From NCBI GenBank assembly GCA_041662245.1, contig JBAZSW010000004.1:11454-75453 (forward strand): DNA of 64,000 bases. Direction: 5' to 3'. The notes beneath the pieces are model-generated. The model did not search any database, had not been told where the DNA came from, and worked only from the letters and a program-made list of their open reading frames with translations. The position numbers and the translations under genes were made by a program. Below, in pieces: positions 1 through 15,625 of this stretch. Origin of the DNA: Parcubacteria group bacterium (GTDB lineage Bacteria > Patescibacteriota > Minisyncoccia > Moranbacterales > UBA9337). How positions within the stretch are numbered: position 1 is the stretch's first letter; every line of letters starts with the position of its first letter.

Positions 1-1388
1 AAAAAGATTATAAGAAAGAAGTCGATTATCTAGCTATTCATCATTATCTTACTTATCAATATTGCCCTACTCCACTGACTGGATTTAAGGATATAAAAAA
101 ATTAGAACCGGCTCACTTTCTATTTATTGATTTAAAAAATAAAAAGGTTGAGAAAGAAAAATATTGGAAATTGGATTATTCCAAAAAATTGAATCTTTCC
201 CAAAAAGAATGGAAAAAGAGAATTATGCTAAAATTGGATGAGTCTGTGCGTTTACGCATGATTTCCGATGTGCCTATTGGCGCTTTTCTCTCGGGAGGTA
301 TTGATTCCAGCGCGATAGTGGCGCTGATGAGCCAGCATAGTGATAAACCCATTAAAACTTTTTCTATTGGCTTTGGCGAAAAAAAATATAATGAACTCCG
401 CTATGCTAAAATTGTTGCAAGGAAGTTTAAAACTGATCACAAAGAATTCATCGTTAAACCCAATGCTATCGAGCTCCTTCCAATGCTTGTAAGACAGTAT
501 GAGGAGCCTTATGCTGACTCGAGTGCCCTACCTACCTATTATGTTAGTAAATTGACTAGAGAATATGTGACTGTCGCTTTAAATGGTGATGGAGGTGATG
601 AAAACTTTGGTGGCTATGGTCGCTACAGCGTTCAAAAATTTGGACTTTGGTATGATAAAATTATGCCTCTTCATAAATTTATTGTCTTACCCATCAGTAA
701 GTTTTTAGCTAAAAATATTAAAAATACTTTTTTCGATAGAGCTTATGTTTTTGCCGAAACACTTTCTCAAAAATATAACTATCGGTATATTAATTATATC
801 CGCTATTTTTCCAATGAATTAAAAGAAAAAATGTACACCGATAGCTTTAAAGAAAAAACTAAAAATATTGATTCGTACGACATAGTGGCTAGTAAATTCA
901 ACGAAGCTGGAACTAAAGATAAGATGGACCAATGCCTTTACGCTGATTTTAATACTTATTTACATGATGACCTAATGGCTAAAGTCGATATTGATTCTAT
1001 GACTGTGGCGCTAGAAGGTCGTTCCCCTTTTCTCGATCATGAGCTCCTCGAGCTCACAGCTCAAATTCCCTTTGATCTAAAACTTAAGGGATATAATAAT
1101 AAAAAATATATTTTAAAAGAAGCTTTGCAAGGGCTAGTGCCAGATGAAGTGATGTTTCGACCGAAAATGGGATTTGGAATTCCGATTGATATTTGGTTTC
1201 GCGGAGAGCTTAAGAATTACGCCTATGACCTCCTTTTATCTGAGCAATCACTTTCTAGGGGTATTTTTAAAAAAGAAGCCGTTTTGAGCCTCCTAGATGA
1301 ACACACTAAAACAAAAATAAGTCATGCCTACAGAATTTGGGCGCTTATCACCTTAGAGCTTTGGTTTAGAGAATATTTCCCCTCGTAA
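1..1388 (+). CDS. asnB: Asparagine synthetase (glutamine-hydrolysing)-like amidotransferase, 5'-truncated by the window edge. The reading frame is open from position 3; the listed ATG at 171 is internal.
   Basis: PP-loop SGGIDSS motif and a conserved AsnB C-terminal region (EPYADSS, GGDE). Such amidotransferases commonly open polysaccharide loci. Confidence 0.8.
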   Translation, partial: KDYKKEVDYLAIHHYLTYQYCPTPLTGFKDIKKLEPAHFLFIDLKNKKVEKEKYWKLDYSKKLNLSQKEWKKRIMLKLDESVRLRMISDVPIGAFLSGGIDSSAIVALMSQHSDKPIKTFSIGFGEKKYNELRYAKIVARKFKTDHKEFIVKPNAIELLPMLVRQYEEPYADSSALPTYYVSKLTREYVTVALNGDGGDENFGGYGRYSVQKFGLWYDKIMPLHKFIVLPISKFLAKNIKNTFFDRAYVFAETLSQKYNYRYINYIRYFSNELKEKMYTDSFKEKTKNIDSYDIVASKFNEAGTKDKMDQCLYADFNTYLHDDLMAKVDIDSMTVALEGRSPFLDHELLELTAQIPFDLKLKGYNNKKYILKEALQGLVPDEVMFRPKMGFGIPIDIWFRGELKNYAYDLLLSEQSLSRGIFKKEAVLSLLDEHTKTKISHAYRIWALITLELWFREYFPS

Positions 1389-1410
1389 AATTTAACCCCC
1401 ATTTCTGTCC

Positions 1411-2310
1411 TTGCGAGTCGGTACTCCAACGTGGCAATCCAGAAATATGTTTATAATAAGTCACAGCAATATGCTCTACAAAAAAATTATTATTATCTCT
1501 TTTGTTTTTGGAATAATTCTTTTGTCATTGAATATTTATGGGCTTTTTATTTCTTTAAGAAGTCCTTTGATTTATAATCCGGAACTTTTCTCTCATAAAA
1601 CAAGCGACATAATCACCATGTCAGAAACTGAAGTTTTTTCAAAAATATCCCAGAGAAAAGGACACACCAATGAAGAATTCTTGGAAATTACAACGGATTC
1701 TATTCATAATGGCATGCTTCACTATTGGGACGATGAACTAAAGAATGAGTTTAATCTAAGGATTCCTATTTATGAAAATTACATACTCTTTACACTCAGC
1801 TATATCCATCCTGGAATATTTCAGAAGTATGAAATAAGTGGCTTATGGGAAAAAGGTGTTGAGCGAGGTGTTGGTTGGTGTTCTCAGTCTTCCTGTATTC
1901 TAGCCTCAGCTCTAAGATCAAATGGCTTAAAATCAAAGGTTTATGTTATGCAAAATCATACTGTTGCATTAATTGAAGTTGATGCCAAAGAAAAAAAGGA
2001 ATGGATTGCTGATCCTGATTATGGGGTAGTCATCCGTCATAGTATTGATGAAGTTGAGAGCAATCCTAAATTAATTAAATTATTTTACGAAGAAAAGGGT
2101 TACGATCAAAATACGATTAATAACTTAGTTGCAATTTTCGATAAAAATAACGAGATTGAGCGTAAGAGTAATTTCATACGCCACACAAATTATTGCTCTC
2201 TGAAACATCGAGTATTTGAATATTTTACATATGTCATAAAATGGATACTGCCATTTATATTAATTTTTCCGCTAGTCTACGCGAAGAGTATTAAGAGACG
2301 TCAACATTAA
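1411..2310 (+). CDS. Hypothetical membrane-anchored protein with a possible transglutaminase-like (papain-fold) Cys-His-Asp core.
   Basis: N-terminal TM helix. GWCSQSSC..LRSNGLKSKVYV, then H in NHTVALIEVD, then ADPDYG fits the transglutaminase-like C/H/D spacing. Start codon uncertain. Confidence 0.4.
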   Translation: MRVGTPTWQSRNMFIISHSNMLYKKIIIISFVFGIILLSLNIYGLFISLRSPLIYNPELFSHKTSDIITMSETEVFSKISQRKGHTNEEFLEITTDSIHNGMLHYWDDELKNEFNLRIPIYENYILFTLSYIHPGIFQKYEISGLWEKGVERGVGWCSQSSCILASALRSNGLKSKVYVMQNHTVALIEVDAKEKKEWIADPDYGVVIRHSIDEVESNPKLIKLFYEEKGYDQNTINNLVAIFDKNNEIERKSNFIRHTNYCSLKHRVFEYFTYVIKWILPFILIFPLVYAKSIKRRQH

Positions 2311-2320
2311 TAAAATAATT

Positions 2321-3421
2321 ATGAAAAGAAAAAGGATATTACACCTCATCACAGGTCTTGAAATTGGGGGTGCTGAGATGATGCTCCTTAAAACCTTACC
2401 AAAAATGCAAGATGATTTTGATAATCGTGTTTGCTGCATCATGGGTCATGGACCAATGGGTAAAAAATTGGAAGAAGCTGGCATACCCGTTTATTATCTA
2501 AATTTAAAAAATATTTTTGAGTTAGGTTTGATTCTCAGGTTTAGAAAAGTAACTAAAGAATTGAAACCCAATATCCTAGTAACCTACTTAATTCATGCTG
2601 ATTTATTTGGTCGTGTTTTTGGCAGATTATTTGGCATAAAAAAAATAATTTGCAACCAACGAGGGTCACTGCTACAATGGGAATTTCTGAGGGTTATTGA
2701 TAGGCTAACAAAATGCTTAGTTACCCATTATATTGTCCAAACCAAAGTCACTAAAAGAGAACTTGCGCAGAAACTTCATTTGCCTTTAGAAAAATTTACA
2801 GTTATCCCTAACTCCATTGATGTTTCAGAATATAAATTCGAACTAGACAAAGATGCAAAGAAAAAAGAATTAGGAATAAATCCTACTAATCAAAATATCG
2901 TTTGCGTCAGTAATTTGCGTCGTAGCAAGGGTCATGAATATCTATTGGAAGCTTTTGAAGAAATTTACGCCAAAAATAACAATATAAATCTGCTAATTGT
3001 CGGCGATGGTGAGCGAGAAGTTGAGTTAAGAGAAAAAACAGAAAACTACTCTTCAAAAAATAATATTTATTTTCTTGGAAAAAGAAGTGATGTAAAAGAG
3101 ATTCTTAGGATAAGTGATGTCTTTATACTCCCTACTCTTGCCGAAGGAATGAGTAATGCAATTATGGAAGCTATGGCAACGGGACTTGCGATTATCACTA
3201 CAGCTATTGAAGTAAATAAAGAACTTATCCAAGATAATTATTCGGGACTGTTGGTACCTACACAAAATAGCATAGCGATTAGTCAATCCATAGATAAAAT
3301 CACTTATAATCTAAAACTCAAAAATCAGCTCAGATTCAATGCAAAAGAAAAAATAATAAACAACTTTTCAGTAAAGGCCTGTGTCGAAAAAACTAAGAAT
3401 CTTTACAATACTATCTTATAA
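2321..3421 (+). CDS. Glycosyltransferase family 4 (GT-B, retaining).
   Basis: C-terminal EX7E-type motif LPTLAEGMSNAIMEAMATGLAIITT and an N-terminal GlycTransf_4-like region. Confidence 0.85.
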   Translation: MKRKRILHLITGLEIGGAEMMLLKTLPKMQDDFDNRVCCIMGHGPMGKKLEEAGIPVYYLNLKNIFELGLILRFRKVTKELKPNILVTYLIHADLFGRVFGRLFGIKKIICNQRGSLLQWEFLRVIDRLTKCLVTHYIVQTKVTKRELAQKLHLPLEKFTVIPNSIDVSEYKFELDKDAKKKELGINPTNQNIVCVSNLRRSKGHEYLLEAFEEIYAKNNNINLLIVGDGEREVELREKTENYSSKNNIYFLGKRSDVKEILRISDVFILPTLAEGMSNAIMEAMATGLAIITTAIEVNKELIQDNYSGLLVPTQNSIAISQSIDKITYNLKLKNQLRFNAKEKIINNFSVKACVEKTKNLYNTIL

Positions 3422-4252
3422 TTTTTTCAAAAGAAATTCATTACAACCTATACTTCTGACTCCCGTGTATTTTTCGCAGATCATATTATACTTTTTAAAA
3501 TAAACAATAATTTCTTTCACTGAAGCATACTCATAGGGATAACCACCTAACCAATCTTTTATATCAGTAAAAAAATTCATACCTCTTAAGGTTGAATAAT
3601 TTTTAATATACGAAAATGGATTTTTTAGATTAGCTACTAGACCAATAACAAAATAAGTTACATATACACATTCCATTATTTTCTTGATAGCAACATTTGA
3701 GGAATTATAAAATCTTTTTAAATTTACCCATAATTTAGAAGTACCCTCTAGTATACATTTTGTGTTTTTATTATAAATAGCCAAATAAAAAACTCCCTCA
3801 GTTTTCATTAATTGAATAACATTTTCAAAGGCTCGATACATTTCACCAGTGTGATGCAAAACTCCCCAAGAATATACTATATCAAATTGACCTAGGGTTT
3901 TAATAAAATTCTCATCTAGGGCTGAACCTTTTGTAATTTTCCAGTTTTCAGGATTGCCATTTTTTTCTTTTAGATATTTAGCACAAGCAATAGAGAAATC
4001 ATCCACATCTACACTGACGACTTCTTTTGCTCCGAGCAGATAAGCAGCTAGAGAAAATAATCCGCTTCCAGATCCAATATCCACAAAAGTTTTATCTTTA
4101 ATCTTATCTTCACCTCCTAAAAATTCTACCAATGATTTTTTAGCTTCCTGTATTTTTTCATCTGTTAGCGTTTTTAAGAAATTCTGCCAATTTTTACCAA
4201 AACTAAAATGTTTCTTATTTTTATATGTATCTTCGTATATTTCATTTTTCAT
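3416..4252 (-). CDS. Class I SAM-dependent methyltransferase.
   Basis: Motif I VDIGSGSGLFSLAA and post-I acidic residue (VVSVD). Confidence 0.8.
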   Translation of the reverse strand: MKNEIYEDTYKNKKHFSFGKNWQNFLKTLTDEKIQEAKKSLVEFLGGEDKIKDKTFVDIGSGSGLFSLAAYLLGAKEVVSVDVDDFSIACAKYLKEKNGNPENWKITKGSALDENFIKTLGQFDIVYSWGVLHHTGEMYRAFENVIQLMKTEGVFYLAIYNKNTKCILEGTSKLWVNLKRFYNSSNVAIKKIMECVYVTYFVIGLVANLKNPFSYIKNYSTLRGMNFFTDIKDWLGGYPYEYASVKEIIVYFKKYNMICEKYTGVRSIGCNEFLLKKL

Positions 4253-4266
4253 ACTTTTTATTTTAA

Positions 4267-5622
4267 TTATTTACAATATTCGCACAAGATGTTGGCTATT
4301 TTTTCTCCTGAATTTCCACGAAGAGAATGGGCTAATTCTTTTGCTGTATCAGTTTTAACATATTTATGGTTAATACAAAAATTAATTTTTTTAACTAAGT
4401 CGCTCAATGAATGAGCAATATGAGATCCATCTCTCCGTAATAAATATTCTGCATGATTAAATTTATAAAATCTTTTGACTGAACTATAAAAATCTAGTTT
4501 GTCTTCATCGAAAGCTATTCCTATAGCTGGAGTTCGCATAACTAAGGCCTCCAGAAGAACAGTTGAAACAACATTCAAAATTACATCTGAATTTTTTAAG
4601 ATATTGCCATAATGGACGAGATCTTCCATTTGAAATCCCATGCCATCATTAAGTTGAATATTTTTAGAATTTGTAGTTTCTATTTTGACATTATTATATT
4701 TTTTAAGATTTTTGTAATATTTGATATCATCTCTGGGATGTAGCCTAACCAGCAAAAACCATTTAAACACTATGGATTTTTCAAACTCTTTTATTATTTT
4801 TTCAATTATTATATTTTCATTAGGAATCATTGGATGAGTCCCTGTTGTATATGTTATAATTTTGCGATCATTTGTAATACCCAAGTATTCGCATAAATTC
4901 TCTTTACTTAATAAATTTTTGTTTTTTAGATAAAAATCTAATTGTGGTATACCAACTTTATGTACACTCCCTTTATAATCTGAGAAAAAAGATAAGATTT
5001 CCTCTTCTTGAAATTTATTCCAAATTAATATTTTCTCAAAATTAATATTTATTGGCCCCTTAGAACTTAAATTATCCCAGCTATGAACCATTCCCACTAT
5101 CGGGATGCACCTGTCCAGAGCCTCCTTTATGACGCTAAAATCAAATCTAAATGAAGGAGCTGTCACAAAAATAACATCTGGTTTTATTTTAGAAATTAAT
5201 AACTTTGTTTTTTCATCTTTAGAAAATAAAAATTTAAAATAATCAAAAAATAAATACTGTTTTTTCCAAGATAAAAAAAATCTTAGAAATAAACACAAGC
5301 CTAAGATTAGGCGCTGAGAAAAAATTAAACTTTGATCTTTAGTTTTTACATCAAAAGTAGATGAGTTAATATATTTATTAAAAGAAATAATAGTGGCTTG
5401 AGAAAAAACCATTTGAAAAAATTTAAATTTTTCTGGAATAAAATGAAGTGAAATTGAAGGATATTGTTCATAATTAAATATCTTCTTAACATCTTTTAAT
5501 GGAATTGGCGTAAAAATATGTATTTCATTATATTTTTTTAATAATAATTCCAAAAAAATAACATTTAAAAAAAGATTTTTAAATGTTGAACCAAATGGAG
5601 CAGTAATAATTATTTTATTCAT
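4267..5622 (-). CDS. Putative CMP-sugar-dependent glycosyltransferase (HP-motif; sialyl/Kdo-transferase-like or capsule-synthesis-like).
   Basis: 451 aa with a GT-B-like architecture. It carries an RLHPRDD (HP) motif and HSWDN. It sits immediately downstream of neuA/neuC/neuB. Family assignment is tentative. Confidence 0.4.
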   Translation of the reverse strand: MNKIIITAPFGSTFKNLFLNVIFLELLLKKYNEIHIFTPIPLKDVKKIFNYEQYPSISLHFIPEKFKFFQMVFSQATIISFNKYINSSTFDVKTKDQSLIFSQRLILGLCLFLRFFLSWKKQYLFFDYFKFLFSKDEKTKLLISKIKPDVIFVTAPSFRFDFSVIKEALDRCIPIVGMVHSWDNLSSKGPININFEKILIWNKFQEEEILSFFSDYKGSVHKVGIPQLDFYLKNKNLLSKENLCEYLGITNDRKIITYTTGTHPMIPNENIIIEKIIKEFEKSIVFKWFLLVRLHPRDDIKYYKNLKKYNNVKIETTNSKNIQLNDGMGFQMEDLVHYGNILKNSDVILNVVSTVLLEALVMRTPAIGIAFDEDKLDFYSSVKRFYKFNHAEYLLRRDGSHIAHSLSDLVKKINFCINHKYVKTDTAKELAHSLRGNSGEKIANILCEYCK

Positions 5623-5634
5623 ATCAATCCAGTT

Positions 5635-6369
5635 TTATTTTAGTTTTATTTTATTATTTATTTTTTTCATCATGTATTCAGCCTTTAGCCAATCAAATTC
5701 ATTATCTATATCAATTGATCTTTCTTTCGGCACAATATGTCCAACAATATTATTCCCAAAAATCTTATTTTTCTTCATCAATAGATCCCTGGTCATTACA
5801 TAAACTGCACCGCTTCTTTTGTAAGCAGTTGGCAAATCCTGACGTCTAAAAACATTCTCCTTAATGCAATACGGAAATACCCTGTCTCCAATAATTTTTT
5901 TTATTTTAATTGGATGATTGCAATCAATCTCAACAAGGCTAACTGCTGAATCTGCCTGTTTATTATTTATAATCTTTTTCAGAGTTTCATCAATATCTTT
6001 TGCCTCACGTAATGGAGAAGTTGGCTGGAGAATAACAACGTAATCAAAAATGATGCCTAACTTTTTCTCCATAAAATCATTGGCATGTTTCATGACATCG
6101 ATATGACTAGCTGTATCAGATGCTAATGCGGCTGGACGCAAAAAAGGAACCTGAACTTTTAATTTTTTTGATATATCAGCTATCTTTTTATCATCTGTAG
6201 AAACAATCAGATGGGAAATCAATTTACTTTTCTTTGCCACTTGGATTGTATAAACAACAAGAGGCTTCTTTCTTAATTTTTTTAGATTTTTTCCCGGAAT
6301 TCCCTTTGAACCGCTTCTGGCAGTGATAACCGCTAATATCTTATATTTTTTTTTCATAAATCTAATCAA
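5635..6369 (-). CDS. neuA: Acylneuraminate (nonulosonate) cytidylyltransferase, CMP-NeuAc synthetase family.
   Basis: N-terminal ILAVITARSGSKGIPGKNLKKL signature of the CTP_transf_3 family. Confidence 0.85.
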   Translation of the reverse strand: MIRFMKKKYKILAVITARSGSKGIPGKNLKKLRKKPLVVYTIQVAKKSKLISHLIVSTDDKKIADISKKLKVQVPFLRPAALASDTASHIDVMKHANDFMEKKLGIIFDYVVILQPTSPLREAKDIDETLKKIINNKQADSAVSLVEIDCNHPIKIKKIIGDRVFPYCIKENVFRRQDLPTAYKRSGAVYVMTRDLLMKKNKIFGNNIVGHIVPKERSIDIDNEFDWLKAEYMMKKINNKIKLK

Positions 6370-7525
6370 TAAATTCTTTTTGAGTGTAAAGTTTTATCTT
6401 GGCTAAAACTCTAGCGATTTCTTTACTTGTATCATTTGAATGATATAGACAAGATTGTTCATATCTACCTACCTTTAATTGACGCCTGATTGCTTTTTCA
6501 ATCTCTTTATTTGAATTATTGCAACGAATAACATTTTGCGCCCTTAAACGATTATCTTGCCTTTGCCCAATATCCACAACTGGGATTCCTAAATATGAAC
6601 ATTCCTTAATACCAGCTGAAGAATTTCCAACTAAACATCTTGCGTTGGATAGTAGTCTCAGAAATTTTTTAGGATGCAAGTATCTCAGAAATTTTATTTT
6701 ATGATCGACTTCTTGATCATTAAACAATCTCAATTCATGAGATATTTTTTCTGCACCTGCATCAAAATTAGGCCAAAACCACAAAATCTGAATATCGAAT
6801 TTATTCACTGCCTTTAGAATCTCTCTTGTATAAATAGATAAATTATCAATTTGACTTGTAACAGGATGAAACATTACCATAATATACTCTTTAGTAAAGT
6901 CAAAATTCGCACCACTACCCACATTTTTTAAATTTATATTCCCATTTTCTTTTAAAACTTTTTTTGCAACTTCAATATCCGGACTTCCAAAATTAAATAC
7001 ATATTTTTTTCTTTCTCCCATTCTTAAAATTCTTTCATATGCATCTTCGTTTGTTGCAAAATGTACATGTGAAAGTTTAGTTATGGCATGTCTTACTGAT
7101 TCATCTAACGTTCCACTTTTATCCCCTCCTTCTATATGAGCAACTGGAATATTCATATACGAAGCGGCTATAGTAGCAGCAAGTACTTCAAATCTATCTG
7201 CTCTTACAACAACTACATCTGGATTTATTTCATTAAAAACAGATGAGAATTCAACTATTCCCAACCCTACCGTCTTAGATTTTGTAATAACATTGTCGCC
7301 CTCCAAATTGAAATGAACTTCGTAAACAAATTTGTAATTCTCTTTTTCTAATATATTTTTTATATTGAAATCATGTGAAACATGTTTACTCAAAAGCACA
7401 GAACCACCTAAAACAATATGTAATTCAACATCTTCTCTTTTTTTTAATTCATTGAGAATTAAAAAATTCCGACTATAATGAATTGGACTAGTAATTACAA
7501 AACAAATCTTTCTTTTGTGAATCAT
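6362..7525 (-). CDS. neuC: UDP-N-acetylglucosamine 2-epimerase (NeuC-type hydrolysing epimerase inferred from context).
   Basis: Epimerase_2 motifs RADRFEVLAATIAA, PVAHIEGGD, DESVRHAITKLSHVHF. Flanked by neuA and neuB. Confidence 0.8.
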   Translation of the reverse strand: MIHKRKICFVITSPIHYSRNFLILNELKKREDVELHIVLGGSVLLSKHVSHDFNIKNILEKENYKFVYEVHFNLEGDNVITKSKTVGLGIVEFSSVFNEINPDVVVVRADRFEVLAATIAASYMNIPVAHIEGGDKSGTLDESVRHAITKLSHVHFATNEDAYERILRMGERKKYVFNFGSPDIEVAKKVLKENGNINLKNVGSGANFDFTKEYIMVMFHPVTSQIDNLSIYTREILKAVNKFDIQILWFWPNFDAGAEKISHELRLFNDQEVDHKIKFLRYLHPKKFLRLLSNARCLVGNSSAGIKECSYLGIPVVDIGQRQDNRLRAQNVIRCNNSNKEIEKAIRRQLKVGRYEQSCLYHSNDTSKEIARVLAKIKLYTQKEFID

Positions 7526-7531
7526 AAATAT

Positions 7532-8392
7532 TTAATAATTTTTACCTAATCTTCCTGTATATCTTTCTCTTGTGAGTTTTTCTTCGGGAAGCAAATCTAA
7601 ATTACCCGTACCCATCAATACATCATATTTATTTCTCCATTCACAAAGATCGATAAAGACATCAGGCTCATCTGCAATCATATGTGTTGTAATGGGTTTC
7701 AGCCCTTTTCCGACACTGTGAGATATTTGTGGCGTGTTTTTATCTATCGTAAAATGTTTTTCAATATAGTCGACCCCAATTCCCATTGAAAAAACTGCCG
7801 CTTCTAACCCCAAAACATGATCAGAATAACCGACAGAGTTGGCCACAGTCTTTAGCCAACAGAGTTTTTTTAAATTAGCTTTTTCCATTGGACAAGGATA
7901 AACCGATACACAATGCATAATTGTATATTTTCCTGATTTTAATATATCAATAGCTTTTAAAATCTCATCTTGGGTTGACATACCAGAAGAAACAATAACC
8001 TCTTCGAAATTATCCCTAATTTTCTTTAAAAAATCAAAATGCTTAAGATCTGTACTTGCTATTTTTATCGATTTTAACCCTAATTCTTTTAAAAATTCAA
8101 TTCGACCAAAATCATAGCATGTTGTCATAAAATCAACATTATTTTTTTCACATTCTTCCTTCAATATATAATGTGCCTCATCAGAAAGCTCAAGTGAAGC
8201 ATATCTTTTTTTATCTGGATCTATATCGCTTACATTTTTACTTTGCCAAGACTGAAATTTTACAATATCCACCCCAGTTTCTGCTGCAGATTTTATCATT
8301 TTTTTTGCCAAATCAATATTACCATTGTGACAAGAAGCAATTTCCGCAATTATTTTTGGTTTGTTACTCATATTTTTTTCCATTACATTCAA
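7532..8392 (-). CDS. neuB: N-acetylneuraminate/nonulosonate synthase (NeuB family), short form. The real start is probably the internal M of MSNKPKIIAEI.
   Basis: IIAEIASCHNGN...VDIVKFQSW NeuB N-terminal signature. 286 aa suggests a missing or shortened SAF domain. Confidence 0.8.
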   Translation of the reverse strand: MNVMEKNMSNKPKIIAEIASCHNGNIDLAKKMIKSAAETGVDIVKFQSWQSKNVSDIDPDKKRYASLELSDEAHYILKEECEKNNVDFMTTCYDFGRIEFLKELGLKSIKIASTDLKHFDFLKKIRDNFEEVIVSSGMSTQDEILKAIDILKSGKYTIMHCVSVYPCPMEKANLKKLCWLKTVANSVGYSDHVLGLEAAVFSMGIGVDYIEKHFTIDKNTPQISHSVGKGLKPITTHMIADEPDVFIDLCEWRNKYDVLMGTGNLDLLPEEKLTRERYTGRLGKNY

Positions 8393-9209
8393 AAATTAAA
8401 TAAATACTGTCTTTTGAATCCTCTTCTTCATATAAAGAATGCACCTTAATATCATTAAAAAAATTACTAAGAAAAATCTCTAGACTAATTTTACTGAAAT
8501 AGTTTCGATGATCAAACCAATGCCACCTAGCTCTACCCATTTTTTCATATTTTTTATTCGGGAAACGATTTGGAACACTTATGAAAAATTTTCCATCTTT
8601 TTTAATAAATTTATACAAGTTTTGAAATGCTGGAAGCATGTCCTGAGGAGCCATATGCTCGAAAACCTCATAGGCACAAACGGAATCAAATTTTCCGAAT
8701 CTCAATGGAAAGTTTTCAATAGTAAAATTCTCTAGTTTTATTTTTTTAGCTACACCATAATTAATTATTCCTTGTTTCAATAAATCTTTAATTAATCTTT
8801 TCCCATCTTTAATGGCAGATTTTCTTATATCTATGCCAACTACCTTTGAAACATTTGGAATTTGAGCAATCTTGATACTCACACTCCCATCGCTACATCC
8901 GACTTCCAAAACTTTCTTTCCATAATTAAAACTCTCAATTAGCTCGATTCTTCTCAGGTCGTCCTGCAACATATTTTTTACATTTTTTTCAACTTTATCA
9001 GGATAAAAAACTCTTTTAATTTGATCTTTATACTTTTCAGCACTATTATTTTGATCTTTCTCGTTCCACAAATATGATTCGATTACAACTGGCAACACGC
9101 AAGAAGAATCCGTGGATATAGTTTCTTTTTTTGCGAAAGAATTAAGCATTTTGCCTTCTTTGTCCAATAAAACAATTTTTTTAATATTCTTTATCATATT
9201 TAAATTCAA
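8364..9209 (-). CDS. Class I SAM-dependent methyltransferase.
   Basis: Motif I LEVGCSDGSVS and a Methyltransf_11/23-like layout. It overlaps the neuB start by 29 nt, so operonic. Confidence 0.75.
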   Translation of the reverse strand: MNLNMIKNIKKIVLLDKEGKMLNSFAKKETISTDSSCVLPVVIESYLWNEKDQNNSAEKYKDQIKRVFYPDKVEKNVKNMLQDDLRRIELIESFNYGKKVLEVGCSDGSVSIKIAQIPNVSKVVGIDIRKSAIKDGKRLIKDLLKQGIINYGVAKKIKLENFTIENFPLRFGKFDSVCAYEVFEHMAPQDMLPAFQNLYKFIKKDGKFFISVPNRFPNKKYEKMGRARWHWFDHRNYFSKISLEIFLSNFFNDIKVHSLYEEEDSKDSIYLIFECNGKKYE

Positions 9210-9256
9210 TAATCAATTATCATTCTATGCTCATAAAACACATTATACAACTTTTT

Positions 9257-10549
9257 CTATTGAAATGCAAAATACTTCTTTCTAATTGCCAAACTTACAA
9301 CATAAGCCATTACCCATACAAAAAAACTTAAATTGAAAGCTACCACCGCACCAAAAAGGCCATATTTAAAAATTAAAGTAAATGACAAAATAATTTTGGT
9401 AATATAATAAACGGTATCTGAGAAAACAATAACTGCATTCATTTTCTTTGCATATACATATCTTACAATCATATTCTGAGGAATATATAAAATAATAAAC
9501 AAGACAAAATATTTTGAATACGAATAATATTCTGTATAGTTAGTGCCAAACAATAGCAAACAAAGTTTTACGATAAAAAAATAATAAAATACTGATAATA
9601 TTAAAATCACTATACCAAAAAATAATACAATTGCTCGTTTATTTTTTAGTAACTGCCATAAGTCTTCATTCGTAATTATAAATTTAGGAAAAAGTATACT
9701 TAAAAGTGGCTTCACACTTTCTCTTAACTTGATTGGAATCAATGAAACAATTGAATACGCAGCTAGTGTCACGGGGGACAAAAAAGTTGCTAGTATAATT
9801 TTATCTACATTATCAGCCACTATTCCAAGTGCACTAATTTTTGTTAAAAAAAATCCATATTTATCAACATCTGGATCTTTATTATTATTATTTATATATT
9901 TTAAACTTTTTTGATAAAATAAAACATTAAATAAAGCAAAAATTCCTAGATATATGGTCGCTATTACTAACAAATTATCCTTATAAAACAAAATAGCCAA
10001 AACAGAAAATAAGGTATTTACAATTGATTGAATGGAAAAATATTTAGCTGAAATGTCAAAAAGTGCCTTTCCTTGCAAAAAACTATCCCATGTATTGAAA
10101 GCATAAAAGAATGGAAAAATTATTGAAGTTACCAGTAAAGATATTCCTAATGGAAAACTTTCCTTTATGTAATAAAATCCAATAATCCAAAGGATGGGAA
10201 TCCCTATAATACTCCATAAAAAACTTTTTTTAACGACACTCTGATAATTCCCATCACTTCCATTGGCAACTGCCGCAGAAATTGATGTATTTAAACCTGA
10301 AATAGAACAAATTGAAACTATGGACCAAATAGAAATTATCAATTGATATTGACCAAATACTTCTTTGCTTAAAAATCTAGCGAAAGAAATATATAGAATC
10401 AAGCCAGCAATAATAGTTATAATTTGTCTTAAGCTAACCCAAAAACCATTCTTAATAAAATATGGCAAGTCGAGGCCTATTTTTTTGCCCAATTTTTTAG
10501 ATAAACTATAGACTTTTTCTTGTATTTTATTTATTATTTTCATATTCAA
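9257..10549 (-). CDS. Polysaccharide biosynthesis protein / Wzx-like flippase (MOP superfamily).
   Basis: 430 aa and ~12 predicted TM helices. Typical Wzx length and placement at the end of a glycan locus. Confidence 0.7.
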   Translation of the reverse strand: MNMKIINKIQEKVYSLSKKLGKKIGLDLPYFIKNGFWVSLRQIITIIAGLILYISFARFLSKEVFGQYQLIISIWSIVSICSISGLNTSISAAVANGSDGNYQSVVKKSFLWSIIGIPILWIIGFYYIKESFPLGISLLVTSIIFPFFYAFNTWDSFLQGKALFDISAKYFSIQSIVNTLFSVLAILFYKDNLLVIATIYLGIFALFNVLFYQKSLKYINNNNKDPDVDKYGFFLTKISALGIVADNVDKIILATFLSPVTLAAYSIVSLIPIKLRESVKPLLSILFPKFIITNEDLWQLLKNKRAIVLFFGIVILILSVFYYFFIVKLCLLLFGTNYTEYYSYSKYFVLFIILYIPQNMIVRYVYAKKMNAVIVFSDTVYYITKIILSFTLIFKYGLFGAVVAFNLSFFVWVMAYVVSLAIRKKYFAFQ

Positions 10550-10842: not shown

Positions 10843-12279
10843 TCAAACAAGTAAAAAATATTTCAGCGGTATTTGCACAATGTTCTCCTTTTCAAAAATA
10901 TTCAATTCGTTTTTTGATATAACCAGTCCATATTTTGCTTTTACTTTAGACGCTGTTTGAATTACTTGAGATATACCTTTATTTCCCATCCCAACCTCTA
11001 TTATAATTTTCTCCCTTGCAAAACCCAAGATAAAATCCGCTCCACCCTGGGCATTATCATACGTGAGTGAAGTATTTATTTTTTTGAAAAGAAATCTACT
11101 TAAGTACATTCCAATCGTATCCTCCAGTAGTTTTCCTGAATAATTTTCTTTTGAAATTACATTACCAATAAAGTTATAATACATTGATCGGAAAGCTGGC
11201 GAAGCAAATAGGTATTTGGAAGGCTTTTTTACCTGATTCAAATGAGAGCCGTGAGGATACACTCTAATTAATGTTTCAGTTTTCTCTAGCGCATTAAAAA
11301 TTTCCATAATTTTAGGACGACTAATGTTGAAAATTTCCGATAATTTTACATAACTTAGTTGTTCTATATCTGCAGTCGCATAAAGAATTGAAGGAATTTT
11401 TGAAATTGTTTCCGAATTAAATTGACCAGTCCTGGCGACATCACTGTTGATTATCCTATCTAACGTTTTATTTATTTGATCATAAACCAAGGCCTCATTG
11501 TTTAACATAACCATAAAAGGAAGCGAGCCATATCTCATATATCTTTCCATCTCCATTCTTTCGATATCAATCCAATATTCATTTATTCTATTTTCGATTC
11601 TGCGCATACCTGCATAGACATCTACCGCAGAGACTGAATTAAAAATTACTCTTCGAACTTCTTTTCGAAGACCTGCTGTTTCACTTTTTCCTGTCTTAAT
11701 TTTCATATATTCCACAAAACTGAGTGGGAACAATTTTTCAAATATAGCCCTTCTTGCGATATCGGGGTTCGTATTAAGATTTAGCGCCGAAGATCCAGTA
11801 GCAAAAATAAAAACATTTTTTGACCTATCATACAGACTTTTTAATGTGATAGCCCATTTTTCATCATATTGGATCTCATCAAGAAATAGATAAAGAGGTT
11901 TATCAAGTCTTTCCATTGCGACTCCAATTAAATCTTCATATGCTTCCAAAACATCATTCAATCCGACGCCAAGAATTTGAACTATATGATCAACTGATAA
12001 ATATAACCGGCGAACATCTCTGTTTTTTTCCACATAATACAACTGTGACATAATTGTAGTCTTTCCGGCGCCCCGAAGGCCGGTCAAAATAAGCCACCTG
12101 GCAGTGGATTTGTGTTCAAAAAAATCCGTAAAATATTTATGTAATTTTATATAAATATTTCTCTTGGGTCGTAGCTTTTTATTTTCATCGAAAATATAAG
12201 CTTCAGCTCGAAAATCCGCCTGCGAAATTTGATCTTGCAAAAACTTTATTATCTTTTCTCTTTTTTCATTATTAGCCAT
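10843..12279 (-). CDS. AAA+ ATPase (AAA_14-like) with a C-terminal DUF4143-like domain.
   Basis: Walker A GLRGAGKTT and Walker B LFLDEIQ. 478 aa architecture typical of archaeal-type ATPase/DUF4143 proteins. Confidence 0.8.
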   Translation of the reverse strand: MANNEKREKIIKFLQDQISQADFRAEAYIFDENKKLRPKRNIYIKLHKYFTDFFEHKSTARWLILTGLRGAGKTTIMSQLYYVEKNRDVRRLYLSVDHIVQILGVGLNDVLEAYEDLIGVAMERLDKPLYLFLDEIQYDEKWAITLKSLYDRSKNVFIFATGSSALNLNTNPDIARRAIFEKLFPLSFVEYMKIKTGKSETAGLRKEVRRVIFNSVSAVDVYAGMRRIENRINEYWIDIERMEMERYMRYGSLPFMVMLNNEALVYDQINKTLDRIINSDVARTGQFNSETISKIPSILYATADIEQLSYVKLSEIFNISRPKIMEIFNALEKTETLIRVYPHGSHLNQVKKPSKYLFASPAFRSMYYNFIGNVISKENYSGKLLEDTIGMYLSRFLFKKINTSLTYDNAQGGADFILGFAREKIIIEVGMGNKGISQVIQTASKVKAKYGLVISKNELNIFEKENIVQIPLKYFLLV

Positions 12280-12440
12280 ACCATTTTAAAATTATTTTAA
12301 TGCTAAATATAGTTTACATTAAAACTATAAATCTTGTCAATATTTATTTACAAGTGTATAGAGACTCCCTATTTACGGCTAATTTAAACAACTTTTTGCT
12401 ATTTTTCTTGTTTGCTTTCTTAAGTTAAAACGGAAGGGGG

Positions 12441-12550
12441 TTTTGAGGAATTTTCGCATTTCATCACTCCGGCCCTGCCCAAAAACCCGCCGATGCACAG
12501 CTTCAGTCAAAGTTATCAATTGTAATTTCAAATTCTCAATCATTTTTTTG
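12441..12550. repeat. R1 repeat copy B.
   Basis: ttttgaggaattttcgcatttcatcact...gcccaaaaaccc...acagcttcagtcaaagttatcaattgtaatttcaaattctcaatcattttttt. It lies immediately 5' of the ATPase gene on the minus strand. Confidence 0.9.
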
Positions 12551-12629
12551 TTTCAATAATTTTTATTTTTTTATCCATTTCTAATATCTAGTTATTATTG
12601 TTTTTGTACATTAGTAATGTATATTATTT

Positions 12630-13676
12630 TCAGTCTTTTATATATGTTATTTTCATCTTATAGTAAGTCGCCCTTCCTTTGCCAAACTTTTCAATTATCC
12701 CTAGGGATATTAATTTCCTAAAATCAAGATTTCTCGTCGGTTTTGCTCGTGTAGTTAGCTTAGCATAATCTCGATCGCTAACATATCCATTATTCTCTAT
12801 GTATTTGATAATTTTCTTGTGATAATTCTTAATTGCCGTATCGGGAGAGATGACCACCTTTTCAAGCTCTTTACTGACGCGTAATAGTTCATCAATAATT
12901 CCGTCTGTAAAATATTCCAGCCACGACGTAAAATCGAATTGATCTTTAATATCATAATAATTTCCCATTACACCAACTTCTTGAAAATATTTACTGACAT
13001 TATTATTGTAATAATTTTCAAAACTAAAAAGATTAAAAGTATTTAGTCCCATTTTGGCTAATAATACCTTAGTGGCTAGACGAGCTGTTCTGCCATTGCC
13101 ATCAATAAAGGGATGGATGATTACAAATTGCTTATGAAATAATCCAGCCAAAATCAACGGGTCAATGATATCTTTATTTATATTTATATAACTCAATAAG
13201 TCATTCATCAGCTCTAATACGTCTAATTGCTCTGGTGGCAGATAAACGACCTGGCGAGCTCTTGGATCATTTACAAAAACTGCTTCTTGCCTTAATCGTC
13301 CGCATCGATGCTTTTCAATTAAATCTTGTGTTATGTTTTTTTGAATCTCCAATATCAAATCTAAATCAAAAGAATGCTCTTTATCTTTTGACAAAGAGCT
13401 CAGAGTAATTAACGCCTTATTGTAATTTAAAACTTCCCTCTCGCTATCACGAACATGTTTGGGGGCATTTTTTATAATTCTTTTAACGTCAGTCAAGGGT
13501 AATGGGTTTCCTTCAATGCTCGTAGAAGAAAAGGCGGAAATTTCCCGCGCCCGCCTCTCAAATTCTGCCAAAACAACATCCGAAAAATTCCGATTATTCA
13601 AATCAGTAATAATTTCAGTTATTTTTTTAATGTTAGCTAATAGTTGGCTAGAAATAGTATATTTTGGCTCAAACAT
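12630..13676 (-). CDS. Fic family protein (class II, with an N-terminal autoinhibitory helix).
   Basis: Fic active-site motif HPFIDGNGRTARL. Inhibitory (S/T)xxxE(G/N) motif STSIEGN in the N-terminal Fic_N region. C-terminal wHTH-like tail. Confidence 0.9.
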   Translation of the reverse strand: MFEPKYTISSQLLANIKKITEIITDLNNRNFSDVVLAEFERRAREISAFSSTSIEGNPLPLTDVKRIIKNAPKHVRDSEREVLNYNKALITLSSLSKDKEHSFDLDLILEIQKNITQDLIEKHRCGRLRQEAVFVNDPRARQVVYLPPEQLDVLELMNDLLSYININKDIIDPLILAGLFHKQFVIIHPFIDGNGRTARLATKVLLAKMGLNTFNLFSFENYYNNNVSKYFQEVGVMGNYYDIKDQFDFTSWLEYFTDGIIDELLRVSKELEKVVISPDTAIKNYHKKIIKYIENNGYVSDRDYAKLTTRAKPTRNLDFRKLISLGIIEKFGKGRATYYKMKITYIKD

Positions 13677-13744
13677 AGATAATGATAGTTACTTATATAG
13701 ACTAATTATAGACGATTATTAGACGATTGTCAACCTCTTACTCA

Positions 13745-13815
13745 GCCCAAAAACCCTCAGGTGCACAGCTTCAGTCAAAACAATTAACCTTAATTTCAAT
13801 ATTCTCAATCATTTC
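13745..13815. repeat. R1 repeat copy C, in the divergent region between Fic and the 80-aa gene.
   Basis: gcccaaaaaccctcaggtgcacagcttcagtcaaaacaattaaccttaatttcaatattctcaatcattt. Confidence 0.85.
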
Positions 13816-13911
13816 TATATTATGCATTATTTTACAATATTTTACAATTTAGCTATAATCTAGCCATAAGACTCGTTTGACACTCCCGAAGTAAGGTTTT
13901 ATAATTAAACT

Positions 13912-14154
13912 ATGAAAAATAACAACAAAACAAAAAAAGAAATGACTATTGATGATTTAGCGCTAATGGTAGCTAAAGGCTTTAATGATGCAAATGAAAG
14001 GATGAATAAACGTTTTGATCAAGTAGATAAGAGATTTGAGAAAATTGAATCACGCCTTAAAAATATTGAAGCTGATCTTAATAAAAAGTTAGACAAAATT
14101 GAACATAACACTCTTATTTATCGAGTTGAAAAATTAGAGAAGAAATTTGCTTAA
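13912..14154 (+). CDS. Small coiled-coil hypothetical protein (80 aa).
   Basis: Heptad-rich K/E sequence (MNKRFDQVDKRFEKIESRLKNIEADLNKKLDKIE). A hairpin terminator follows at 14184-14212. Confidence 0.5.
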   Translation: MKNNNKTKKEMTIDDLALMVAKGFNDANERMNKRFDQVDKRFEKIESRLKNIEADLNKKLDKIEHNTLIYRVEKLEKKFA

Positions 14155-14183
14155 TATAAAATTTTAGAATTATTCAAAATATA

Positions 14184-14212
14184 AACAGGTCCACAACCTG
14201 TTTTTTTATCAC
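14184..14212 (+). terminator. Rho-independent terminator (aacaggtccacaacctgtttttttat).
   Basis: 7-bp stem aacaggt/acctgtt with a 4-nt loop and a T7 tract, directly after the 80-aa ORF. Confidence 0.7.
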
Positions 14213-14295
14213 TCATCTCATGCCCAAAAACCCTCAGGTGCACAGCTTCAGTCAAGGTTATCAATTGTAATTTCAAATTCTCAATCATTTTTTTC
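14207..14295. repeat. R1 repeat copy D.
   Basis: atcactcatctcatgcccaaaaaccctcaggtgcacagcttcagtcaaggttatcaattgtaatttcaaattctcaatcattttttt. Confidence 0.9.
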
Positions 14296-14333
14296 TTTTT
14301 TTAAAATATTTCACCTTTCTTACCTATTCCCCA

Positions 14334-14405
14334 AAATGTATCAACATACCACCTGCCCGCTAGTTGCTACAGCGTTGCAGGCGGGCGGCCGTGCCAACTC
14401 GACAC
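14334..14405. repeat. R2 palindromic repeat copy with the H hairpin insert (14353-14388).
   Basis: Identical to 10688-10762 over ~72 nt (aaaatgtatcaacataccacctgcccgctagttgctacagcgttgcaggcgggcggccgtgccaactcgacac). Confidence 0.9.
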
Positions 14406-14654
14406 CTACCTATATCGCCCCAATTATAAATCCCGAACCCATCCATTTCTCTATTATGCATTATTTTTCCGCTCCCGCCCATACTTGAAAATTTTATTAT
14501 TTAGGTGCACAATCTAAATGCAATGACATCTCGAAAGAGAAGCTCTGAGATTCCAACTAGACGGGGTCGTTTTTTTATTCCAAATCTCGGACAGAAGTTC
14601 ACACAATTCACATTGTTAGGTGGAGATTTTTTTATTTTATTTTTCTTTTTTTTA

Positions 14655-14694
14655 AAATGTATCAACATACCACGGCCGTGTTAAGTTGACACAT
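14655..14694. promoter_or_regulatory. R2 palindrome without insert (tgtatcaacataccac ggccg tgttaagttgacaca), 25 nt downstream of the PaaX-like gene.
   Basis: Imperfect inverted arms (13/16) around a GGCCG centre. Candidate dimeric-regulator binding site. Confidence 0.5.
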
Positions 14695-14717
14695 TATATT
14701 GACATTGCAAACAAATG

Positions 14718-15290
14718 CTAGATTTCTAAATTAAAAAGTTTTGCAAAATGTCTTTTAATCTTATCTTCATTATCAATTTTTAAGGCTGTAATAACTCTGA
14801 CATATTTTTGAGCAGAATACAAATCAATCACTTCCAGCATGGCTTCTTCCAAAGGATAAGGAGAAACAAATACGCTATGTTGAAGTTTAAAAAATTTAAG
14901 CTCTCGCAAATGATCTCGTAAAATATCGCGAAAAGCTCGGTCTTTCTCTGGAATGTCAAAAAGAACAATTCTCCATCTATTATCCCACTTTCTTGGCTTC
15001 TTAAAATTTATTGATTTTCCAATCAGACTAAGCATTCTTGCCTGCTTTATCCCCTCTGCAGTAAGCAGTAATTTAAAGGAACCATTGGGAGATATTTTTT
15101 CTTCAATTAATTTTTCTTTCGAAAGTTTACTGATGGAGCGATTAAAATTACGCTGGTCTATCCTTTCCCAATCTTTTTTTAATGTTCGAAGTGTCCTAAA
15201 ATACTGTCTAGAAGAATTCGATACTCCTAAAGCCACACCGCCCAAAAGCACTAGCATAATCTTTTTTTGTGTTGTTCCAAATTTATGCAT
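14718..15290 (-). CDS. PaaX_C-like domain protein (putative transcriptional regulator; Cas2/VapD-like fold family).
   Basis: C-terminal WDNRWRIVLFDIPEKDRAFRDILRDHLRELKFFKLQHSVFVSPYP matches the PaaX C-terminal domain consensus pattern. Recognised from memory and not searched. Confidence 0.5.
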   Translation of the reverse strand: MHKFGTTQKKIMLVLLGGVALGVSNSSRQYFRTLRTLKKDWERIDQRNFNRSISKLSKEKLIEEKISPNGSFKLLLTAEGIKQARMLSLIGKSINFKKPRKWDNRWRIVLFDIPEKDRAFRDILRDHLRELKFFKLQHSVFVSPYPLEEAMLEVIDLYSAQKYVRVITALKIDNEDKIKRHFAKLFNLEI

Positions 15291-15298
15291 ACATTATT

Positions 15299-15337
15299 TG
15301 TATCAACATACCACGGCCGTGTTAAGTCGACACATTT
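15299..15337. promoter_or_regulatory. R2 palindrome without insert, immediately upstream (-9 to -47) of the PaaX-like gene start.
   Basis: tgtatcaacataccacggccgtgttaagtcgacacat. Its position relative to the start codon suggests an operator/promoter. Confidence 0.5.
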
Positions 15338-15625
15338 ATTATATTACTTTTTTGGCATACACTGTAACAATAGGTATATCTAAATATACATTAAAACATG
15401 ATTTTTACTGATAGTCTTTACCCCATTAAATAAAAACTTATCGGACGAAAAAAATACAACTATAATTTCAAAGACTCCTTGGAAAGATTGCGTTTTATTT
15501 ATTATATTTTACCACTTTTCAAATATTAGTTCAAAGCAAGATTCCTGAAGCTAGTCCTGATTGCAAAAAGAAATTATTGTCGTGCCATGGACTTTTCAGA
15601 CATGCTTCATTATAATTAAGTTACT

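Follow-up and report, generated by a model that had tools for sequence, protein, structure and literature searches.

A SAF-less NeuB-like synthase and a coupled methyltransferase in a predicted nonulosonic acid locus of a Parcubacteria bacterium

In Escherichia coli K1, Neisseria meningitidis (SiaA/SiaC/SiaB) and group B Streptococcus, three enzyme families convert UDP-N-acetylglucosamine (UDP-GlcNAc) to N-acetylmannosamine (ManNAc), condense it with phosphoenolpyruvate (PEP) and activate the product with CTP. These enzyme families, the logic of the pathway and the existence of NeuB proteins lacking a SAF domain are already known. In N. meningitidis NeuB the SAF domain provides Arg314, which is required for ManNAc binding, while about 30% of NeuB-domain proteins are SAF-less, of environmental origin and of unexamined function (PMC8208679). 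The BFO_1060 family of Tannerella forsythia has been genetically implicated in adding a pseudaminic or legionaminic acid derivative to a protein O-glycan and was described as TagB-like with HP and D/E-D/E-G motifs (PMC5420450). Here, we compare these systems with a locus in a 64-kb stretch of DNA (64,000 nucleotides, referred to as the window) from a Parcubacteria group bacterium (GenBank assembly GCA_041662245.1, contig JBAZSW010000004.1, positions 11,454 to 75,453). The window encodes the same three enzyme families in a seven-gene minus-strand operon (3416-10543) with the order wzx, MT-B, neuB, neuC, neuA, the gene of a 451-aa transferase, and MT-A, where MT-A and MT-B are S-adenosylmethionine (SAM)-dependent methyltransferases. 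This operon probably makes a CMP-activated and likely methylated nonulosonic acid of the neuraminic type that is added to a glycan on the cell surface of this organism. Gene content, family assignments, the conserved catalytic residues, the core kept in seven related loci and a fusion of cytidylyltransferase and MT-B are observed, whereas we infer which sugar is made, where the methyl group goes, which donor the 451-aa enzyme uses and what the final acceptor is.

An earlier note on this DNA, made from the sequence alone, had proposed a locus for a sialic or legionaminic type of sugar in an organism resembling the candidate phyla radiation (CPR). The latter guess was correct, as NCBI names three locus proteins with 100% identity on a 163,808-bp contig (P0002, P0121, P0187) Parcubacteria group bacterium, under the Patescibacteria group. 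Using an open reading frame (ORF) listing together with Pfam and NCBIfam (TIGR) family scans, all genes named in that note were recovered as intact ORFs with family support, including the HP-motif transferase, the two SAM methyltransferases and the Wzx flippase of the minus-strand cluster. All coordinates given here are positions in the window. NeuC scored 341.5 bits on TIGR03568, above the equivalog cutoff of 235.9, and 70.3 bits on the WecB model. A WecB-only role, named beforehand as the finding that would speak against the pathway, was thus rejected in favour of a hydrolysing epimerase. Similarly, NeuA scored 104-116 bits against CMP-Neu5Ac (N-acetylneuraminic acid) synthetases of known structure (6ifd 116, 1eyr 104) and only 25-28 bits against KdsB, so that its identity as a CMP-Kdo (3-deoxy-D-manno-octulosonate) synthetase, the other such possibility, was rejected as well. 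Among solved structures NeuC matched LegG (5xvs, 179 bits) and the epimerase of human GNE (4zht, 177 bits) best, and because these scores are nearly equal NeuC does not discriminate between sugar types. NeuA reached 164.6 bits on the PseF model TIGR03584, below the cutoff of 205.7; as the verified Campylobacter jejuni LegF also falls below it (142 bits), this score is no pointer to pseudaminic acid. Together, these matches support a complete three-step route to a CMP-nonulosonate (NeuC, NeuB-like, NeuA) beside a candidate transferase and a flippase, as had been claimed, with the role of the transferase being a prediction.

The synthase itself differs clearly from its described counterparts. 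On the PF03102 barrel model it lies far above the cutoff (180 bits against 22.1), but on TIGR03569 (NeuB_NnaB) it reached 195.5 bits against a cutoff of 399.65, with only positions 3-231 of the 329 in the model being matched, while the verified C. jejuni LegI scores 514. On the PseI model its score was 136.8 bits. Family scans found no SAF domain in the protein, which ends at residue 283. In place of this domain there is a conserved helical tail of about 60 aa (KPITTH..A.EP, followed by E268, R272, Y275 and R278-L-G). Alignment to N. meningitidis NeuB and 77 family members indicated that the metal- and PEP-binding residues are kept, with E25/K53/Q55/K129/S132/S154/H215/E234/H236 of N. meningitidis corresponding to E14/K42/Q44/K107/S110/S132/H189/E208/H210. 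These are invariant across the 77 family members, except for S132 of the window protein, which is conserved in at least 90%. In contrast, the canonical PGxDH motif that follows HFT has become PQxxH when read against SpsE and the Leptospira borgpetersenii synthetase 6ncs, with Q219 and H222 invariant and the Asp gone. Such an altered sugar pocket would leave room for a non-standard aldose. An AlphaFold2 model built with 77 homologues (predicted local distance difference test, pLDDT, 94.9) consists of a TIM barrel and two C-terminal helices. Its best fold match is the SAF-less 6ncs (template modelling score, TM, 0.86; 29% identity), followed by N. meningitidis NeuB and C. jejuni PseI, with TM values of 0.82-0.86 to 1xuu and 6ncs.

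The earlier note had proposed placing NeuB among sialic, legionaminic and pseudaminic clades, and it fell into none of the three. In a neighbour-joining tree of the barrel region with N. meningitidis NeuB, PseI, SpsE, 6ncs, C. jejuni LegI and Legionella NeuB as references (the cluster of the C. jejuni LegI having been verified gene by gene), the CPR NeuB family and two SAF-less sequences from metagenome-assembled genomes (MAGs; L003 and L004) formed a clade of their own. As this tree carries no bootstrap support, the claim of a separate clade rests mainly on identity levels, which among the matches listed are at least 47% between family members and do not exceed 40% to other proteins; a profile search of contigs likewise listed relatives of at most 40% identity, with no close CPR genomes among those listed. 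The predicted synthase is therefore placed outside the Neu5Ac, legionaminic and pseudaminic reference clades, in a separate SAF-less one. When 1.84 billion representatives were searched by phmmer with only the 72 residues of the tail, four matches were returned, a number that is uninformative on the size of the family, since its members merge at 50% clustering and so short a query was used.

Some family members or sisters carry labels from other lineages, namely Omnitrophica (P0070, 68% identity) and Nanoarchaeum (P0116, 50%), and more distant SAF-less NeuB proteins (35-37%) come from MAGs of Desulfarculaceae and 'Bifidobacteriaceae'. Ultra-small lineages might have shared these genes horizontally, or the labels might stem from binning errors. 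A canonical, SAF-containing LegI-like NeuB of 333 aa was observed in Candidatus Uhrbacteria (L014, MGDU01000021.1, 10007-11008), so both types of synthase occur in CPR.

The pathway had been thought unusual for a CPR organism. Instead, it proved to be a recurrent module that is shared by more than 100 protein clusters in CPR, with core proteins 45-81% identical and catalytic residues invariant. Among seven distinct loci compared (the window, L083, L085, L087, L088, L089 and L090), all contain the core of MT-B, NeuB, NeuC and cytidylyltransferase. In six of them neuB directly follows MT-B, whereas in L087 neuC and three other genes intervene; neuC and the CTP_transf_3 gene either adjoin neuB or sit a few kb away. 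NeuB orthologues are 55-74% identical across the related loci and those of MT-B 45-67%, with the fused copy in L090 being 34% identical over the methyltransferase domain. In this latter locus (GCA_964488085.1, CAZATK010000001.1, 8659-9975) one uninterrupted ORF of 438 aa joins a CTP_transf_3 cytidylyltransferase to MT-B. Its cytidylyltransferase part is 48% identical to residues 1-127 of the window NeuA, and the locus has no separate neuA. Through this fusion, methylation is tied to the pathway at its activation step. Every source-named protein among the 63 homologues of MT-B found carries a Patescibacteria-group name, and at least 34 of the 63 agree exactly with a NeuB match in the length of the longest contig. 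MT-B is thus proposed as a nonulosonate methyltransferase, with the nonulosonate as its presumed acceptor. The earlier note had pointed to three methyltransferases and a GT-C-like membrane enzyme. While all are present, only MT-B appears tied to the pathway, by its conservation and the gene fusion. MT-A has no orthologue in the other CPR loci, with only weak cross-matches to methyltransferase domains, and is best described as a putative locus-specific accessory.

Which sugar is made was approached through its precursor genes, within about 72 kb of the 164-kb contig. No DegT aminotransferase, 4,6-dehydratase or PtmE/PtmF homologue was found in the window or in the 7.7 kb to its left, and no acetyltransferase for legionaminic or pseudaminic precursors (LegH/PglD) was found within the approximately 72 kb, so the upstream pathway genes for which the earlier note had proposed a search did not appear. 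As a control, the profile search of contigs with the NeuB alignment supplied 60 canonical NeuB loci, which span 15 kb or more and are mostly LegI-like. DegT lies within 10 kb in 41 of these 60 loci but in two of the seven CPR-type loci, and a PtmE-like gene in 43 of 60 against one of seven. The legionaminic type is disfavoured by the lack of precursor genes, and a neuraminic-type backbone is favoured since NeuC, NeuB and NeuA alone suffice for an acid derived from ManNAc. Based on this comparison, a ManNAc-derived, neuraminic-type backbone is our best guess at slightly better than even chances. Of the earlier designation as sialic or legionaminic, the nonulosonate route stands, while the synthase is non-canonical and SAF-less and the legionaminic half has lost ground. 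A pseudaminic pathway was rejected, as NeuC, which is not used there, is present, PseB, PseC, PseH and PseG were not found within the same approximately 72 kb, and the PseI score of the synthase is the lower one.

Alternatively, the product could be a legionaminic-type or other 5,7-diamino nonulosonate, with NeuC acting as LegG on UDP- or GDP-N,N'-diacetylbacillosamine and the precursor enzymes encoded elsewhere in the genome. The match of NeuC to LegG, as good as that to human GNE, is compatible with this, as is the higher score of the synthase on TIGR03569, the model that also names the verified C. jejuni LegI, than on the PseI model. In addition, some members of the NeuB family are annotated as N,N'-diacetyllegionaminate synthase by the Joint Genome Institute, and DegT and dehydratase genes lie 8-10 kb from the core in L089 and L090, the latter also with a PtmE-like nucleotidyltransferase. 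Yet DegT within 10 kb is missing from the other five CPR-type loci, the DegT, dehydratase and PtmE/PtmF genes are absent from the window and its left flank, and the synthase stands in a clade apart from that of the verified C. jejuni LegI and Legionella NeuB. We regard this alternative as rather unlikely.

The activated sugar would be transferred by the 451-aa protein. This protein passes the Pfam Glyphos_transf model (PF04464) narrowly (26.0 bits, cutoff 22.1), and on the NCBIfam BFO_1060 model its match is weak (45.7 bits against a cutoff of 200) and confined to residues 139-269. Across 44 homologues, S181-W-D183, G224 and R293 are invariant, and N184, D229, H295, S353-T354, H390, D435-G436 and R441 are at least 90% conserved. 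An AlphaFold2 model (pLDDT 94.4) has a GT-B fold with two Rossmann-like domains, and its structure matches were only generic (2-epimerases, MshA and TagF, 3l7l). As neither a TagD-type glycerol-3-phosphate cytidylyltransferase nor another CDP-polyol source was found in the window, a CMP-nonulosonate would be the sole cytidylyl-linked donor that the locus can make, and for this reason we lean slightly towards a CMP-nonulosonate-dependent transferase. One to three tandem paralogues of this enzyme occur in five of the seven loci, and L089 has a KpsC/S-like Capsule_synth gene instead.

A different outcome would be another ulosonic acid (Kdn-like, eight-carbon or from a modified aldose) or a polymer resembling teichoic acid, which would contain a NeuC-made ManNAc residue and a CDP-polyol made elsewhere. 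These variants would agree with the lost or variable SAF, D247 and E134 equivalents of the synthase, with NCBI calling the 451-aa protein a CDP-glycerol glycerophosphotransferase, with the passed Glyphos_transf cutoff and with the tandem TagF-like paralogues and ABC exporters of related loci, which resemble wall teichoic acid systems. Against them stand the missing CDP-polyol source in the window and a cytidylyltransferase of the CMP-sialate type, and the genes for NeuC, NeuB and NeuA, adjacent or nearby in all seven loci, form a signature of nonulosonate synthesis. Overall, these variants appear quite improbable.

Several observations nevertheless weigh against a neuraminic-type acid made and transferred as proposed. 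NeuB, NeuA and the 451-aa protein each fall below equivalog or family cutoffs, and the NeuB clade contains no characterised member. Having no SAF domain, this synthase has no equivalent of Arg314. In addition, the equivalent of D247 of N. meningitidis NeuB is not conserved, and that of E134 (D112) is variable within the family, so that the aldose substrate may differ from plain ManNAc. Legionaminic-type precursor genes could also sit outside the approximately 72 kb, and two of the seven loci (L089 and L090) do carry DegT 8-10 kb from the core. The nearest solved relatives of MT-B (Hen1, CFA synthase and UbiG) are only distant. Finally, the locus was found to lack an initiating phosphoglycosyltransferase; the sole Glycos_transf_4 protein of the window is MraY of the dcw (division and cell wall) cluster.

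With these points in mind, the neuraminic-type route would proceed as follows. NeuC would hydrolyse and epimerise UDP-GlcNAc to ManNAc, which the SAF-less TIM-barrel synthase would condense with PEP to a nine-carbon 2-keto-3-deoxy acid. This acid would be activated with CTP by NeuA, and MT-B would methylate the sugar at or near this activation step. From the CMP donor, the 451-aa GT-B enzyme might then transfer the sugar to a lipid-linked or polymeric acceptor made by the neighbouring GT4 and GT2 enzymes, and the Wzx-like protein would flip the product outwards. AsnB, MT-A and the membrane proteins without family matches may provide strain-variable decoration or assembly. A surface glycan is suggested by the Wzx-like gene, by the GT4 and GT2 enzymes and by the lack of outer-membrane genes; a polymer of the capsule-like or wall-linked kind and a protein glycan are equally compatible with the data. 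A lipopolysaccharide-like product, as the earlier note had also considered, is unlikely with no outer-membrane genes in view, and such a product is not expected in CPR bacteria.

The features of the locus are listed in Table 1. Gene starts were taken from an independent Logan assembly contig (SRR18595301, 20,248 bp; L002), which is identical to the window across 400 aligned bases and whose locus genes encode identical products.

Table 1 Predicted genes of the nonulosonic acid locus and its neighbourhood.
Feature	Coordinates	Strand	Remarks
Wzx-like MOP-family flippase, 428 aa	9257..10543	-	First gene of the minus-strand operon; Pfam Polysacc_synt
MT-B, class I SAM methyltransferase, 277 aa	8364..9197	-	CMAS/Methyltransf_23-like, Pfam matches
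NeuB-like PEP-condensing nonulosonate synthase (predicted), 283 aa	7532..8383	-	Pfam NeuB (PF03102) 180 bits
NeuC, hydrolysing UDP-N-acetylhexosamine 2-epimerase, 387 aa	6362..7525	-	TIGR03568
NeuA-like CMP-nonulosonate synthetase, 240 aa	5635..6357	-	Pfam CTP_transf_3 (PF02348) 93 bits
TagB/TagF-like GT-B transferase, 451 aa	4267..5622	-	RLHP at residues 293-296; SWDN and ST motifs
MT-A, class I SAM methyltransferase, 278 aa	3416..4252	-	Last operon gene; Pfam Methyltransf_31/12/11, PrmA-like
GT4 glycosyltransferase, 366 aa	2321..3421	+	Last gene of the convergent operon; Pfam Glycos_transf_1 136.5 bits
279-aa protein without family match	1471..2310	+	Hydrophobic N- and C-terminal segments, membrane-spanning by eye
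AsnB-like glutamine amidotransferase, C-terminal 462 codons	1..1388	+	Pfam Asn_synthase 332 bits; TIGR03108 356 bits (partial protein)
PMT/PMT_2-like GT-C membrane glycosyltransferase, 492 aa	15626..17104	+	Pfam PMT 49.5, PMT_2 45.3 bits
Third SAM methyltransferase, 261 aa	17827..18612	-	Pfam Methyltransf_11 52.3 bits

The operon is compact, with intergenic gaps of 4-14 nt from neuB to MT-A and a 20-nt overlap of MT-B with the start of neuB. An overlap of neuC and neuA, as described in the earlier note, exists if the TTG at 6369 is the start, while the ATG at 6357 chosen by the gene caller leaves a gap of 4 nt. The single minus-strand cluster that had been described comprises these seven genes; the GT4 and AsnB genes lie on the plus strand, in a convergent operon whose GT4 gene overlaps the 3' end of MT-A by 6 nt with its own 3' end. 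This glycan operon begins about 4.9 kb to the left of the window, with only its last three genes inside. The AsnB frame is open to position 1 and its start lies 505 nt further left. On the Logan contig the full-length protein has 630 aa and its glutaminase (GATase) domains are present; the gene merely crosses the window edge, and a truncated copy or pseudogene was rejected. Further left on this contig are a PpgS-like GT2 (143 bits on the polyprenyl-phosphate-sugar-synthase model), a DUF2304 protein, a second GT4 and a polytopic 682-aa protein. The Wzx-like protein is polytopic as well, scores 46.9 bits on Polysacc_synt (PF01943, cutoff 28.2) and has a homologue in L090. A scan for promoters and terminators was uninformative in this AT-rich window, with 114 promoter-like sites against about 96 expected.

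Two membrane proteins of the plus-strand operon stand apart. The gene of the 682-aa protein (L002 5081-7129, about 0.55-2.6 kb left of the window) is located between GT4 and AsnB, and its product has a soluble C-terminal part. It matched no Pfam or NCBIfam model, the other CPR loci compared contain no homologue of it, and it may be a new polymerase, ligase or GT-C-like enzyme. The 279-aa protein has no Pfam or NCBIfam match either, a look-up of its exact sequence gave no entry, and in the other CPR loci compared neither it nor AsnB has an orthologue. A transglutaminase-like identity, suggested by a Cys-His-Asp pattern seen by eye only (GWCSQSS...NHTVALIEV...ADPDYG), was dropped as unsupported, as no hidden Markov model backed it.

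The accessory genes also differ between loci, with Wzx in some, ABC exporters in others and a Wzy_C-TPR protein in two. Four of the seven loci (L085 8073-9053, L087 4366-5349, L088 8232-9191, L090 7695-8675), though not the window, have a D-2-hydroxyacid dehydrogenase gene immediately upstream of MT-B, which may represent a further step of nonulosonate modification. In L083 (7389-9193) and L089 (8247-9179) this place is taken by a polysaccharide deacetylase, with a Formyl_trans_N protein also found in L083, which suggests strain-variable swapping of N-acyl groups on the sugar, e.g. to N-formyl. Beside the core of L089 (13856-18376), a sulfotransferase, a fused ATP-sulfurylase/APS-kinase (also with a pyruvate-kinase domain match) and an inositol-monophosphatase-family gene hint at a sulfated glycan in that CPR genome.

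Between the operon and the PMT-like GT-C gene, the region 10843-15290 encodes three proteins, namely an ATPase with AAA_14/DUF4143 domains, one with a Fic domain and the Cas2-like PaaX_M. Opposite the PaaX_M gene, an antisense ORF of 152 aa (14953-15411, plus strand) is probably spurious. The earlier note had considered the GT-C protein as a possible oligosaccharyltransferase, yet it is PMT/ArnT-like rather than STT3/PglB or PglL, and it is set off from the locus by these intervening genes. Possibly, it belongs to the same variable glycan island; the GT-C enzyme and the third methyltransferase might use the product of the PpgS-like GT2 to the left of the window, which together with the DUF2304 protein could provide the GT-C donor. 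In L083, too, PaaX_M and then RecG come after the nonulosonate locus, which suggests that the glycan island is variable while its chromosomal site is conserved.

A further alternative is a passenger locus, non-functional or acquired recently, e.g. a transferred island or an assembly chimera without a role in this organism. The GC content at 4-10 kb (0.27-0.32) is slightly lower than in most of the window, the locus adjoins the AAA_14/DUF4143, Fic and PaaX-like genes, and its accessory genes vary. Against this stand the intact ORFs throughout, the Logan assembly with its identical aligned bases and gene products, the conservation of core proteins and catalytic residues across the more than 100 CPR clusters, and the shared chromosomal setting of L083. 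A passenger thus seems highly improbable, and a working nonulosonate operon is preferred.

The remainder of the window encodes housekeeping functions (RecG, ThrRS, PGK, RsmH, MraZ, DprA, TopA, RelA, ParAB), the dcw cluster (MraY, FtsW, Mur ligases, Ddl, PBP) and two large ORFs that were taken by eye as rpoB and rpoC. Over most of its length the window has a negative GC skew (cumulative -5.45), the minus strand carries the majority of the genes and ParA/ParB lie at 61-63 kb, as would be consistent with a nearby replication origin and genes that run with replication.

CPR organisms have minimal genomes and depend on hosts, and their surface chemistry is almost entirely undescribed. Literature searches for CPR, Patescibacteria or Parcubacteria together with sialic or nonulosonic acid found nothing relevant. 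What appears to be new here is a separate clade of SAF-less NeuB proteins, in which a conserved tail takes the place of the domain and the sugar-binding motif is altered, together with the coupling of NeuB to a dedicated methyltransferase, the occasional fusion of the pathway with it, and the recurrence of this module across Parcubacteria and the wider Patescibacteria. Perhaps, and this is a tentative suggestion, a lineage-specific module for an undescribed, methylated sugar resembling sialic acid is common to CPR bacteria and, going by database names, to a few Omnitrophota and Nanoarchaeota. In it, a SAF-less synthase with a remodelled sugar pocket would be coupled to a dedicated methyltransferase, which some genomes fuse to the cytidylyltransferase, and TagF-like enzymes using CMP-linked donors would polymerise the sugar or cap glycans with it on these ultra-small episymbionts. 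If so, the sugar could serve attachment to hosts or evasion of phages and predators. Keeping a conserved and costly pathway for an acidic nine-carbon sugar implies that a sialic-acid-like coat matters to these organisms, be it for attachment, charge, phage defence or mimicry. Four small genes (MT-B, NeuB, NeuC and NeuA) bring two questions within reach of testing, namely what SAF-less NeuB proteins make and what the CPR cell coat consists of, and the identity of the product would give a chemical handle on uncultured CPR cells in the form of a lectin, an antibody or a metabolic label.

Returning to the described systems, the locus shares with the NeuC-NeuB-NeuA pathway for Neu5Ac that no extra precursor enzymes are required and that the metal and PEP residues of NeuB are kept. 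It differs in its synthase, which is about 23% identical to N. meningitidis NeuB, has no SAF domain and no Arg314 equivalent, and carries PQxxH instead of PGxDH. It further has a coupled, dedicated methyltransferase and lacks NeuD and NeuS, and SiaA of N. meningitidis is related only distantly to the window NeuC (35 bits). The C. jejuni legionaminic cluster (PtmG, PtmH, LegI, LegG, PtmE, PtmF, LegF, PtmA) resembles the locus in the adjacency of synthase, hydrolysing epimerase and cytidylyltransferase, and in having amidotransferase and methyltransferase accessory genes in the same island. However, the C. jejuni cluster has PtmE/PtmF, an amidotransferase of the WbuX type and a 334-aa LegI with a SAF domain, all of which the window lacks; the window amidotransferase is of the AsnB type with a glutaminase domain and its NeuB, 35% identical to C. 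jejuni LegI, belongs to a different clade.

The transferase can be compared with T. forsythia Tanf_01245 and TFUB4_00887 of the BFO_1060 family and with TagB/TagF, with which it shares the GT-B fold, the HP motif, a predicted CMP-releasing donor and the position in a nonulosonate locus. In contrast to the BFO_1060 family, with a model of 365 positions, it has 451 aa and its own SWDN motif, and the match is weak and partial. The closest counterpart of the synthase is the L. borgpetersenii 'sialic acid synthetase' 6ncs, its best match in both sequence (117-167 bits) and fold, which is likewise SAF-less and consists, in about 285 aa, of a TIM barrel with a short helical tail. Even here the two differ, as beyond the low identity noted above 6ncs keeps the canonical G-x-D motif (QGIDW), in place of which the CPR family shows PQxxH and, after it, the KPITTH insertion, and they fall into separate neighbour-joining clades.

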